IMG/VR virus record: IMGVR_UViG_2671180878_000023
Source: a virus
Taxonomy: Duplodnaviria; Heunggongvirae; Uroviricota; Caudoviricetes
Length of the DNA stretch: 4,030 bases
Direction: 5' to 3' (one strand)
The position numbers and the translations under genes were made by a program. Below the pieces are notes generated by a model. That model ran no database searches, was not told where the DNA came from, and was given only the letters and a program-made list of their open reading frames with translations. This document shows, one piece after another, positions 275 to 4,030 of the stretch; within the stretch, counting starts at the first letter, position 1, and each line of letters begins with the position of its first letter.

Positions 275-481
275 ATGGAAAAAATCACAACAGGTGTGTC
301 ATACACCACGTCAGCGGTAGGGACGGGATACTGGTTACTGCAACTGCTGGACAAAGTCTCTCCGTCCCAGTGGGTGGCAATAGGTGTGCTGGGGAGTCTG
401 CTGTTTGGCCTGCTGACGTATCTGACTAACCTTTATTTCAAGATTAAAGAAGATAAGCGTAAGGTGGCGCGGGGAGAGTAG
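275..481 (+). CDS. S: Class II holin, pinholin of the phage 21 S21 family (68 aa)
   Basis: Translation [68 protein letters not shown] matches S21 pinholin in length and sequence as I recall it. Weakly hydrophobic Gly/Ala/Ser-rich TMD1, hydrophobic TMD2, charged C-terminal tail. GGAG at 260-263 sits 11 nt upstream of ATG 275. The track ORF 206-481 is an in-frame GTG extension with no better start. Confidence 0.9.
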
Positions 482-2137: not shown

Positions 2138-2596
2138 ATGCTTTCCGCGTTTACCGTTATTCTGCTGGTGGTCTGTGGTGCGCTTAGTCTGGGGCTGAAT
2201 CATTACCGCGATAACGCCATCACCTACAAAGCGCAGCGCGATAAAAAAGCCAGTGAGCTGGATCTGGCAAACGCAACCATTACTGATATGCAGGTGCGCC
2301 AGCGCGATGTTGCTGCGCTCGATGCAAAATACTCGAGGGAATTAGCCGATGCGAGAGCTGAAAATGAAACTCTGCGTGCTGATGTTGCCGCTGGTCGTAA
2401 GCGCCTGCGGATCAACGCCACCTGCCCCGGTACCGTGCGTGAAGCCACCGGCACCTCCGGCGTGGGCAATGATGCCGCCGTCGAACTCTCTCCGGTTGCT
2501 GGACGAAACGTTCTCGGTATCAGAGACGGAATCATCAGCGACCAGGCAGCATTGAGAATGCTTCAGGAATATATCCGCACTCAGTGTATTAACTAG
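2138..2596 (+). CDS. Rz: i-spanin Rz (inner-membrane spanin subunit), lambda Rz homolog
   Basis: From Met 2138: [36 protein letters not shown]...[29 protein letters not shown]...QCIN. N-terminal TMD then [16 protein letters not shown], a coiled-coil region, and a C-terminal Cys, all closely matching lambda Rz as recalled. Alternative start GTG 2123 would add a short basic cytoplasmic tail (SINR) like lambda's MSRVT. The track ORF 1973-2596 is an upstream extension with no homology. Confidence 0.92.
2349..2555 (+). CDS. Rz1: o-spanin Rz1 (outer-membrane lipoprotein spanin subunit), embedded in the +1 frame of Rz
   Basis: [44 protein letters not shown]... has a signal peptide with lipobox VSAC and a proline-rich mature region, matching lambda Rz1 (MLKLKMMLCVMMLPLVVVGC...CVKPPPPPAW as recalled). 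Lies wholly inside Rz in another frame. GAGGGA sits 8 nt upstream of ATG 2349; Met at 2364 is an alternative start. Confidence 0.85.
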
Positions 2597-2619
2597 TATT
2601 TTTGTTATTCGGAGAATGC

Positions 2620-2844
2620 ATGAAGAAATTATTGGTAACCGTAAAGCCTTTTCAGGGAACAATTCCGTTCCGTATTTTGCAGCGTGGTCGTGTTCTTGTT
2701 GAAGGTTCGTTCAGTGGTAAATGTACGCAATTACACTCCCGGACCTTTCAGGTGAATGCCACGAATGAAGAGCTAACCGTTGAGTGTACGATGAATGCCG
2801 CTAAATGCCGCATGGTATCCGCTGCATTACAGCCAGTGTGTTGA
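2620..2844 (+). CDS. Hypothetical small protein (74 aa, basic, 4 Cys) directly downstream of Rz; function unknown
   Basis: ATG 2620 preceded by GGAGAA (2611-2616), 23 nt after the Rz stop, same strand. Codon usage looks host-adapted (CGT, GGT, GTT, AAA, GAA). Sequence MKKLLVTVKPFQGTIPFRILQRGRVLVEGSFSGKCTQLHSRTFQVNATNEELTVECTMNAAKCRMVSAALQPVC has no lipobox and no evident TM segment, so it is not a Bor-like lipoprotein. The track start at 2602 is a TTG extension. Confidence 0.55.
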   Translation: MKKLLVTVKPFQGTIPFRILQRGRVLVEGSFSGKCTQLHSRTFQVNATNEELTVECTMNAAKCRMVSAALQPVC

Positions 2845-3105
2845 GCGACCTTATTATTCATGCGCGGTATTGTCGCCGTATTCCTGCATTAACAGAGACC
2901 GCAGCCCGACCGGGAGAATCCTCTGCGCGAGTGTGCGGGGATAATCAAAAACGATACACACCGGGGTTTACCGCGTTAACGGAGCGCGGCGTTGTCCCCT
3001 CATGGTCGCTGGTCCGGTGCGATGGTGGAAGAAGCCGGATGTTTATCACTATTAATTGATAACACAGAAATGGATTCATTGATTTTCAGCACGTTTTTGT
3101 ATTCG

Positions 3106-3149
3106 TATTATTGAACATCTGTTTATTTTACTTTTAACATATTGATAAT
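3106..3149 (+). promoter_or_regulatory. AT-rich candidate promoter region upstream of the 46-aa ORF
   Basis: Region 3060-3200 is very AT-rich and contains several near-consensus hexamers, for example TTGAAC (3111-3116) with TAACAT (3135-3140) at 18-nt spacing, and GATAAT (3144-3149). The exact promoter cannot be fixed by eye. Confidence 0.2.
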
Positions 3150-3200
3150 AAAAAGAGCTGTAAATCTTTAGATGAGTCGATTTTGTCCGGGGAAGTTCAA

Positions 3201-3341
3201 ATGGATTTTATGCTGACGGTTTCTGGTGTGGTTATCCTGTCCATTGCTTATACTGCAGATAAATATGGCTGCCATTTGTTATCACGTATTGGCGCTTATT
3301 GCTCGTTGATGCTGATTTTCTCGTCGCTTTTTTTTGAGTAA
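3201..3341 (+). CDS. Candidate small membrane protein, 46 aa (MDFMLTVSGVVILSIAYTADKYGCHLLSRIGAYCSLMLIFSSLFFE)
   Basis: ATG 3201 preceded by GGGGAAG (3189-3195) with 5-nt spacing. Two hydrophobic segments (about residues 3-17 and 33-45), two Cys, reasonable codon usage. Sits in an AT-rich island (3060-3370) with a promoter-like region upstream. Not in the ORF track (short). No family recognised; it does not resemble Hok as I recall it. Confidence 0.4.
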   Translation: MDFMLTVSGVVILSIAYTADKYGCHLLSRIGAYCSLMLIFSSLFFE

Positions 3342-3470
3342 GTTATATTAATTATAACAAATAATTTTCTGTGTTTTTTCAGGCTATCCCGTCAGACGGG
3401 AAGCCTGTACTGCCGGGGGACGAATGGAAAACTGATGTGTCCGGTAACTGTGTGTTCTGTGAACACCATG

Positions 3471-3656
3471 TTACTTAATTATGTAATTCATACCCGAACG
3501 CTCTGTTGACAGCCTTCTTCTGCAGGCTTCAATAACCCACGCTGAAAAGTTACCGGAACCTTTATGTTCAAGGGCGATATTGAGCTGTTCAATCATGTGA
3601 TTGGGGAAACGGATATTGCGGATTGTGGTTCTGCGGGTCCGGTTTTTCGATGACAT
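3471..3656 (-). CDS. Small ribbon-helix-helix-type DNA-binding protein (61 aa), probably DUF3950 / YlcI-like
   Basis: MSSKNRTRRTTIRNIRFPNHMIEQLNIALEHKGSGNFSAWVIEACRRRL... has a basic N-terminus, a short beta-strand (TIRNIRF) and two helices, the pattern of Arc/MetJ/CopG RHH repressors. Strong SD on the minus strand (GAGGAAAG, 5-6 nt upstream of the ATG). I recall E. coli DLP12 YlcI being very similar, but that is memory, not a search. Confidence 0.8.
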   Translation of the reverse strand: MSSKNRTRRTTIRNIRFPNHMIEQLNIALEHKGSGNFSAWVIEACRRRLSTERSGMNYIIK

Positions 3657-3697
3657 TTTCTTTCCTCTGGTGACAAGCTATATGGAGAGGATTTTAC

Positions 3698-4030
3698 ATG
3701 GCTGTGCTTCGTACGTTACCGGGCAGAATCAAAACTCTGAACACCCGGCGGGTGAATGTCCTGAAGGGTGAACAGCGTCGGGTCAGTGGTAGTGCCCGGG
3801 TTTCCCTCAAGCGTCGTATCTGGCTGAGGGATGCCGGACAGTGCTGTCTCTGTGGGCGTGTGGTTGACCTTTGTGACAGTGAACTTGAGCACCGCATTGC
3901 ACTTCAGTTCGGTGGTGGTAATGAGGAGACGAATCTCTGGACGCTCTGTACCGAATGCCATCGACAAAAGTCTGCTCGTGAAGCGGCGAGTGGTATGCCA
4001 GACCCGACGCTGCCGGAGGTGTCCGGAGGT
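3698..4030 (+). CDS. Phage HNH endonuclease (terminase-associated type), 3' end beyond the window
   Basis: ATG 3698 preceded by GGAGAGG (3684-3690). The frame is open to the window end (111 codons), which is why it is absent from the ORF track. Translation carries the HNH/zinc-finger signature: CCLCGRVVDL...ELEHRIALQFGGGNEETNLWTLCTECHRQK (C-x2-C ... H ... N ... C-x2-C-H). HNH genes of this type sit next to the terminase small subunit and cos in HK97-like phages. Confidence 0.88.
   Translation, partial: MAVLRTLPGRIKTLNTRRVNVLKGEQRRVSGSARVSLKRRIWLRDAGQCCLCGRVVDLCDSELEHRIALQFGGGNEETNLWTLCTECHRQKSAREAASGMPDPTLPEVSGG

Follow-up and report, generated by a model that had tools for sequence, protein, structure and literature searches.

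The late region of a lambdoid Escherichia coli prophage, as its gene content indicates, is represented by a 4,030-nucleotide stretch of viral DNA (IMG/VR record IMGVR_UViG_2671180878_000023, Caudoviricetes; 'the window' below), and the subject here is an AT-rich island within it that carries a 46-codon open reading frame (ORF), the gene known as ECs1538 in the Sakai strain. The island is best explained as a phage moron, a 430-bp cassette at 3041-3470 that lies between a segment at 2860-3040, termed the anchor in what follows, and a gene of the ylcI/ynfO family. An earlier note, made from the letters alone, had reported an AT-rich block at 3060-3370 between the lysis genes and an RHH/HNH pair. 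The block is real and its location stands, with the true cassette being somewhat wider than was thought. In 100-nt windows the G+C content is 0.23 at 3051-3150 and 0.28 at 3101-3200, against 0.59-0.61 at 2901-3050. By segment it is 0.28 over 3041-3200, the AT-rich 5′ part of the cassette with the apparent promoter region and leader (plus strand), 0.40 in the ORF and 0.43 over 3342-3470, the whole window having 0.47. The distinct base composition that marks a moron is accordingly evident both in the 5′ part and in the ORF when set against the adjoining DNA.

The limits of the cassette come from comparison with relatives. All share the G+C-rich anchor up to about 3040 and diverge beyond it. Homology to phages that lack the island stops at 3040/3041 and restarts only near 3500, so that the right-hand junction falls within the end of ylcI. 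In Lambda_ev058 the anchor ends at position 2383 of the locus, directly abutting the stop codon of a ylcI homologue (2381-2575, minus strand); anchor and ylcI are separated by the 430-bp cassette in S88, O104:H4 and SHP24 as in the window. The cassette thus parts two elements that a related phage has side by side, as expected of a moron. Carriers of the cassette differ in their upstream genes and in their terminase types. JLK-2012 has other cargo in the same slot (2565-3036 of its locus), with two ORFs; its PP_50 (108 aa) has a lipoprotein-like N-terminus (MKRNLPLIILLSSLVMGC...) and is annotated as TonB-like. The presence of a different cassette there identifies the slot as an exchange point for cargo. 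A part in cos was considered for the island and is ruled out: in Stx1 phages the anchor leads straight into cos and Nu1, and here ylcI and the HNH gene separate the island from the terminase genes.

The island is carried by 734 of 5426 complete E. coli genomes (about 13.5%), with a median of one copy per carrying genome, and nearly all copies are at least 97.5% identical. O157:H7, O26, O104:H4 and the extraintestinal pathogenic E. coli (ExPEC) S88 are among the carriers, and 2980-3480 of the window is 100% identical to many chromosomes of Shiga-toxin-producing E. coli, those of O157:H7, O26, O121 and others included. Deposited phage records with the island number only two (tblastn). Among the different contexts, divergence by our own count is about 2% for the cassette versus about 13% for ylcI, and the lower divergence of the cassette suggests recent spread via recombination through the flanking homology. 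A diverged lineage is represented by SHP24 and one other complete genome (2 of the 5426), with an island 80.6% identical to that of the window.

The ORF occupies 3201-3341 of the plus strand, with ATG at 3201 and TAA at 3339-3341, and is called both by the Prokaryotic Genome Annotation Pipeline (PGAP; WP_000347013.1, hypothetical protein) and in the Sakai annotation, where it is ECs1538 (NP_309565.1) of prophage Sp6. The Sakai copy is identical to the window at 841 of 845 positions over 2856-3700, and its ORF is identical throughout. The 46-aa product (MDFMLTVSGVVILSIAYTADKYGCHLLSRIGAYCSLMLIFSSLFFE) has hydrophobic stretches at approximately residues 3-17 and 30-45 with a polar loop between, so the two hydrophobic segments noticed earlier are present. 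Also borne out is the earlier mention of a usable ribosome binding site, in that the Shine-Dalgarno-like GGGGAAG at 3189-3195 (plus strand) can be read as one; in Sakai a G to A change at 3190 makes this GAGGAAG, a better match. Huecker et al. (2017, PMC5597208) predicted a Shine-Dalgarno sequence 4 nt 5′ of the ECs1538 start, with a deltaG of -3.6, which is weak. ECs1538 is therefore not a new gene call: it has a hypothetical-protein annotation, and one ribosome profiling (RIBOseq) study has counted it with the translated short genes. Otherwise, within the literature searchable in full text, no paper names WP_000347013, ECs1538 or the peptide sequence. At the level of composition the ORF, the promoter-like hexamers and the hydrophobicity are real features that are not significant alone, and with such features at chance level the case for them rests on comparison and on expression data.

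At the 3′ end of the ORF there is a length-polymorphic T8 homopolymer (3328-3335, plus strand). Variants of the C-terminus ending in ...FFE, ...FF, ...FLSKLY and ...FFFLSKLY are present in at least 1000, 998, 207 and 1 contigs, endings that by our reading would correspond to runs of T8, T9, T7 and T10, respectively. Changes in run length alter no more than the final one to five residues, and part of the polymorphism may be homopolymer sequencing error.

Most copies of the ORF are too alike to inform on selection, and the SHP24 allele is for this purpose the most telling. Its ORF is in frame, encodes 45 aa (MGLMLTIAGVIVLFIACNADKYGYPLLSRIGAYCALILIFSSLFF) and is 81% identical to that of the window. 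The 25 substitutions between the two comprise 12 synonymous and 13 nonsynonymous changes, with a ratio of nonsynonymous to synonymous divergence (dN/dS) of 0.28 in the ORF frame versus 0.54-2.0 in the other five, and random re-placement of the same substitutions gave 12 or more synonymous changes in 2.7% of trials (P = 0.027). Divergence is 36% at synonymous sites and 37% in the adjacent non-coding DNA of the cassette; at nonsynonymous sites it is 12.7%, lower than at synonymous sites (Fisher P = 0.004) and than in the flanks (8e-6). With all alleles pooled (94 loci) there are 16 synonymous and 18 nonsynonymous events, for which the binomial P is 0.003-0.03 depending on the neutral fraction assumed. 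The frame is intact in 94 of the 94 loci, four of which have GTG, still a start codon, in place of ATG. The amino acid replacements are conservative (V/I, S/A, I/V, F/L, M/I), and hardly any change is seen in the loop A19-DKYG...LLSRIGAYC-34. In-frame conservation in related prophages, on which the earlier note had made the worth of its ORF depend, is therefore found, with purifying selection, in a diverged allele. The ORF is probably a real protein-coding gene.

AlphaFold2, with a shallow four-sequence alignment as input, gives helices at residues 2-21 and 25-44 that form a helical hairpin (mean predicted local distance difference test score, pLDDT, 91.5). Topology prediction, a check that the earlier note had proposed, thus yields two helices, and an inner-membrane location with two transmembrane helices is also predicted for ECs1538 in S9 Table of PMC5597208. 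The charged residues are D2, D20, K21, R29 and E46, a placement that, under the positive-inside rule, favours a cytoplasmic loop with both termini outside. On this modelling the ECs1538 product is predicted to be a two-helix hairpin of the inner membrane. The earlier remark that no known toxin family was recognisable in it has held, and the protein belongs to no recognised family at all, with no match to the 46-aa protein in Pfam or NCBIfam (E <= 0.1), PADLOC (E <= 1) or PHROGs. Foldseek comparison of the hairpin model to the PDB gave nothing at E <= 0.001, generic helical hairpins only being returned. A word-seeded search of 5.8 billion proteins with two alleles recovered E. coli near-copies only, and a profile-HMM search of 1.84 billion representatives recovered the family itself and three further matches, of which the two inspected are translations of tandem repeats. 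No relative was found in one genome per species of 185,579 species.

Expression from an uninduced prophage is on record. Huecker et al. (2017, PMC5597208) performed strand-specific RNA-seq and RIBOseq on uninduced Sakai, and their older coordinates equal those of the window plus 1,557,770, an offset with which ECs1536, ECs1538 and ECs1539 all map. In lysogeny broth (LB), ECs1538 (3201-3341) has RNA at 57.6 reads per kilobase per million mapped reads (RPKM) and ribosome footprints at 26.1 RPKM, a ribosome coverage value (RCV) of 0.46 and a coverage of 0.98. In the brain heart infusion (BHI) control the corresponding values are 32.7, 7.3, 0.23 and 0.81, and under cold and salt stress in BHI they are 2.1, 0.6, 0.29 and 0.13 (PMC5597208). 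The late genes nearby have much less RNA in LB: ECs1537 (2841-3059) has RNA at 3.0 and footprints at 2.1 RPKM, with an RCV of 0.95 and coverage of 0.18; ECs1536 (2620-2844) 10.1, 6.7, 0.68 and 0.35; and ECs1530, the holin gene, which lies beyond the collinear part, 8.4, 8.4, 1.03 and 0.49 (PMC5597208). The ECs1538 RNA is thus 6-19 times that of the surrounding late genes, from published Sakai data with low read counts. Expression from a repressed prophage, another property expected of moron cargo, is seen in both media (57.6 RPKM in LB, 32.7 in BHI), again at low read counts. Since RNA and ribosome footprints are published for an ORF identical to this one, the absence of transcript and translation that the earlier note had allowed for does not apply, and the footprint signal is modest evidence of translation.

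The step in RNA from 3.0 RPKM over 2841-3059 to 57.6 over the ORF means that a transcription start is to be expected within about 3050-3201. Across 3041-3200 the window and SHP24 are 77.5% identical overall, and this identity is very unevenly distributed: 65% over 3041-3083, 84% over 3084-3120, 100% over 3121-3155 and 67% over 3156-3200, to be compared with 81% over the ORF (3201-3338) and 61% over 3339-3470. The 35-nt perfect run at 3121-3155 (plus strand) has a P of 0.0013 by shuffling within 3041-3200, and no column of the block is variable among 47 distinct sequences. Within it is a -10-like GATAAT at 3144-3149, which would set the start near 3156 and leave about 45 nt of leader. The block is a candidate core promoter, possibly with a site for a nucleoid protein. 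The small gene thus apparently has its own promoter, as the earlier note supposed. A perfect match to the consensus for integration host factor, IHF (WATCAANNNNTTR: TATCAATATGTTA), is present on the minus strand at 3135-3147, inside the invariant block and overlapping the candidate -10; the pattern has two matches in the window versus 0.28 expected.

Other candidates for upstream signals were set aside. A promoter predicted by Huecker and colleagues 248 bp upstream (near 2953, linear discriminant function, LDF, score 8.0; PMC5597208) is at odds with RNA of only 3.0 RPKM over 2841-3059. For a plus-strand scan match, TTTTCA-17-TATTAT at 3083-3111, position 3107 is G in 34 of the 47 distinct sequences, with loss of the key A of the -10. 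An upstream ORF of 14 codons, which shares AAATGGATT with the start of the gene (3068-3076 and 3199-3207), has lost its ATG in SHP24.

Downstream of the ORF, the 3′ part of the cassette (3342-3470, plus strand) is transcribed and poorly conserved, with 61% identity to SHP24 and indels. From 3342 the plus-strand RNA extends to about 3500 and enters the 3′ end of ylcI in the antisense direction. Two overlapping novel translated genes have been published here for Sakai, XECs147 (3345-3506, ATA start) and XECs148 (3371-3475/3478, 35 aa, GTG start), with RNA of 38-50 RPKM and RCV of 0.37-0.52 (PMC5597208). The XECs148 ORF is not kept in SHP24, and the signal over the two looks like RNA of a 3′ untranslated region with background footprints. 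At the convergent junction with ylcI an imperfect hairpin at 3444-3474 (plus strand; 14-nt arms, 79% complementary) is a possible terminator; a terminator-like site was reported at 3452-3466 by scan, and the hairpin closes the minimum-free-energy fold of 3156-3480. In the alignments the SHP24 and P0042 alleles show no obvious conservation of this hairpin. For an independent transcription unit there are, at the front, a 35-nt block with GATAAT and a 19-fold rise in RNA from ECs1537 to ECs1538, though with no mapped start found and consensus matches at chance level, and, at the back, only an imperfect, unconserved hairpin. With Rfam scanned over the entire window, the island had no match, which argues against AgvB, AsxR, Esr41 and STnc100, all of them Rfam families. 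As to other small RNAs (sRNAs) of enterohaemorrhagic E. coli prophages, the literature places anti-sRNAs 3′ of PR′ and Pas sRNAs near Q and holin, and neither is the situation at this locus.

We consider it rather likely that the moron has a small inner-membrane hairpin peptide as its cargo, which the lysogen produces in small amounts and for which late read-through is probably a second source. On such a scheme the cassette would have its own promoter, most likely within 3121-3155, with GATAAT at 3144-3149 directing a start near 3156. The promoter would be weakly active in a lysogen in which the surrounding late genes are nearly silent, and its mRNA, some 300 nt long, would have about 45 nt of leader and a Shine-Dalgarno sequence of modest strength. 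Translation of this mRNA would give a peptide of 45-46 residues that would enter the inner membrane as a helical hairpin with both ends periplasmic and the conserved loop A19-DKYG...LLSRIGAYC-34, with K21 and R29, on the cytoplasmic side. In lytic growth, Q-antiterminated late transcripts would presumably read through the gene also.

As a kind of feature, a moron-encoded small membrane protein is ordinary. Morons were described by Juhala, Hendrix and colleagues, and bor of lambda is the classic example. The ECs1538 cassette resembles them as an added transcription unit where a related phage has two genes side by side, in a composition sharply unlike that of its neighbours, in being apparently transcribed in the lysogen while these are quiet, and in its location between lysis and packaging genes. 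It differs from bor in position, since in Lambda_ev058 bor is encoded on the opposite strand, leftward of the anchor, which makes its site a neighbouring slot, and in cargo, a 46-aa hairpin peptide rather than a lipoprotein; its promoter and terminator are candidates read from the sequence. HK97 gp15, which has been described as moron cargo, is like T4 Imm and P22 SieA a superinfection-exclusion protein of the inner membrane. The ECs1538 product would share with these three that it is a prophage-encoded inner-membrane protein, as predicted, though it is much smaller and the sequence and structure searches linked it to none of them.

That the island is instead non-coding AT-rich spacer or regulatory DNA (for example a region for H-NS or IHF, or a promoter for some other target) with a chance ORF, its RNA and footprints being pervasive low-level signal, we think unlikely; the observations that count against a translated moron gene are considered here with it. 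When 3041-3470 is shuffled with its dinucleotides preserved, 43% of the shuffles contain an ORF this long (46 codons or more) with an ATG start, and 67% do if any start is allowed. The grand average of hydropathy (GRAVY) of the product, 1.09-1.11, is that of stop-free shuffles of the ORF's own bases (1.05 +/- 0.35), a match due to the strand being 43% T, so that base composition accounts for the hydrophobicity. There is no protein homologue outside E. coli prophages, and the best-conserved element of the island is the non-coding 35-nt block with its perfect IHF consensus. The promoter-like hexamers pointed out earlier do exist, but their number is at chance level, a promoter scan of 2800-3750 having found two sigma-70-like sites versus 1.8 expected; the candidate -35, on reading of the sequence, is poor. 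Neither a scan nor the published prediction (PMC5597208) provides a good terminator for the small gene. The ORF had on average just 7 reads for RNA and 4 for footprints in the BHI control (PMC5597208, S7 Table), and the RCV of 0.46 is below the mean of 1.55 for short annotated genes in LB (PMC5597208). Because footprint density over XECs147 and XECs148 is similar, and XECs148 at least is unconserved, part of the translation signal may be background. No mapped start, Hfq binding or EDL933 record for the locus was found in the supplements of the Cappable-seq EDL933 paper, of Tree et al. 2014 and of Neuhaus et al. 2016. The signal of selection derives mostly from one diverged lineage, without which there are 6 synonymous to 7 nonsynonymous events; the closer P0015 allele has 4 nonsynonymous changes (one at codon 46) versus 1 synonymous, and rare frameshifted alleles occur (P0010, P0043, P0044 and P0008). 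Against a spacer are the conservation of nonsynonymous sites, threefold greater than that of synonymous sites and flanks and in the ORF frame only, a frame open in 94 of 94 loci as well as in the 80.6%-identical island, and conservative replacements with a nearly invariant loop.

The two other explanations accept a peptide and assign it a different role, and both are considerably less probable. Type I toxins, one of three candidate functions put forward in the earlier note, would have a hydrophobic peptide harm the membrane while an antisense RNA holds its translation low. In size and hydrophobicity a prophage peptide of 46 aa is within the range (below 60 aa), some E. coli type I toxins are prophage-borne, and the low apparent translation efficiency (RCV 0.23-0.46) is a further likeness, as may be the placement of Shine-Dalgarno and start codon in a small local hairpin of the predicted fold. 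The control element is where the comparison fails: at the sequence level no antisense or nearby small RNA gene was found, since no minus-strand promoter is conserved and Rfam matches nothing in the island. Just past the stop codon, at 3356-3351, a perfect TATAAT on the minus strand would in principle permit a cis-antisense RNA, but in the alignments it is destroyed in SHP24 and deleted in the P0015 and P0042 alleles. A minus-strand promoter-like site at 3164-3136 exists too, and RNA from it would miss the ORF, is unstructured (z = +0.18) and is without a terminator; a candidate pairing between leader and ribosome binding site (3111-3119 with 3192-3200) is lost in the aligned SHP24 allele. Pfam and NCBIfam, which are expected to include the known type I toxin families, gave no match. 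The type I toxins of E. coli (Hok, Ldr, TisB, Ibs, ShoB, DinQ, ZorO) are single-helix peptides, unlike the two helices and acidic or absent C-terminal tail here, and the conserved charges of ECs1538 are in the loop instead of at a terminus. The toxin proposal is accordingly not upheld, and we hold it improbable. Marginally less probable again is an auxiliary part in lysis, with the peptide produced from the late transcript to act on timing, for example as a holin or antiholin does. To this idea one is led by the position on the same strand just 3′ of the holin, endolysin and spanin genes, by Met1 and Met4, which superficially recall the dual starts of holins, and by the two predicted helices. 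Class II holins have two transmembrane helices, and the pinholins of the S21 family (PF04971) share with ECs1538 a late-region position by the lysis genes. The product has no sequence similarity to that family, is some 20-25 residues shorter and is without its basic, charged C-terminal tail (...SSLFFE, ...SSLFF, ...FLSKLY). It does not align to the P21-type holin of the window (BLASTP, E <= 100) and has no Pfam or PHROG holin match, and an S21-type holin is already provided by the window at 278-481. Met4 is absent from allele P0042, the presence of the cassette varies among phages with similar lysis genes, and RNA in the lysogen at 6-19 times the level for the lysis genes would be out of keeping with a lysis function.

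For a moron peptide of the lysogen, the activity can be guessed at by analogy. Tentatively, it could act in lysogenic conversion at the level of the envelope, either by keeping incoming phage out or by modulating a membrane protein of the host, roles close to the exclusion factors and membrane-stress modulators that the earlier note also named; the guess of an envelope role comes from other moron cargo and from the lipoprotein gene in the same slot of JLK-2012. Superinfection-exclusion membrane proteins form no sequence family with which the product could be compared, and PADLOC (E <= 1) gave no match for it. Other membrane-embedded proteins of fewer than 50 aa are mostly single-helix products of the core genome, unlike this orphan in a prophage cassette; a mode of action in common with them, with some larger membrane protein as binding partner, is plausible. 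A bolder proposal, which we regard as doubtful, is that ECs1538 founds a new, E. coli-restricted family of two-helix prophage membrane peptides active in the lysogen, either blocking DNA entry or aborting infection by competing phages, or else being a membrane toxin with non-canonical control. Transcription convergent with ylcI, in which plus-strand RNA enters the ylcI 3′ end, may be an example of such control. Were a lysogen-active family of this type real, carriage in 13.5% of complete E. coli genomes would reflect selection on the role. If the peptide is made and active, it would be an uncharacterised lysogenic-conversion factor of roughly one in seven complete E. coli genomes, O104:H4, ExPEC S88 and the principal lineages that produce Shiga toxin among them. 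Small membrane proteins have received little study, and a role has been established for few prophage cargo genes as short as this. From a practical perspective, the locus is a cleanly bounded cargo slot, delimited by the anchor to the left and by ylcI to the right and containing, depending on the phage, ECs1538, a lipoprotein gene or nothing, and is usable for a systematic catalogue of moron cargo.

The anchor itself (2860-3040, outside the cassette; no strand assigned) shares 96% identity with SHP24, including 97 nt without a mismatch at 2937-3033, and its flanks are only 61-84% identical. It was found in 398 phage records, among them lambda-like phages and phage 21. ECs1537, an older ORF call over it, is gone from the current RefSeq annotation and has RNA of only 3.0 RPKM, and there is no Rfam match in 2860-3040. 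Apparently non-coding, the anchor may be a homogenised recombination linker or a functional late-region DNA or RNA element. On the other side, the ylcI/ynfO-family gene (3471-3656, minus strand; Pfam PF13132, DUF3950, E = 1.3e-18; NCBIfam YlcI_YnfO_N) belongs to the phage backbone and borders the cassette on the right, pointing towards the small gene. YlcI varies at its C-terminal tail, which is ...STERSGMNYIIK in the window, ...ATDATHLRPASMTNNEK in JLK-2012 and ...AAETSDANNKQS in SHP24. The HNH endonuclease gene follows from 3698 (plus strand), and in annotated relatives the next genes are those for the terminase small and large subunits and then a capsid/prohead-protease gene.

Upstream, the lysis region comprises the P21-type holin gene (278-481, plus strand; Pfam PF04971, E = 1.8e-32), lysozyme (1169-1702, plus), Rz (2138-2596, plus) and, embedded in Rz, Rz1 (2349-2555, plus), followed by a 74-aa ORF (2620-2844, plus; phrog_2571). 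A second small hydrophobic ORF, of 43 aa (1995-2126, plus; phrog_4906, unknown function, E = 3e-21), is directly 5′ of Rz, where a hypothetical protein is annotated in related prophages. Past the lysozyme gene but before the 43-aa ORF and Rz, the lysis cassette contains a strong hairpin that resembles an intrinsic terminator in both directions (1793-1825; AAAACCCCGTTTG...CAAACGGGGTTTT, 13-14 pairs), and its passage by late transcription would require Q antitermination. A 104-aa ORF on the minus strand (737-1051; phrog_1853, E = 3.5e-47) is located between the holin and lysozyme genes in a stretch of lower G+C (0.34-0.41); its function is unassigned and it is hypothetical in the O104:H4 annotation. 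It is a further moron-like insertion, in this case within the lysis cassette.

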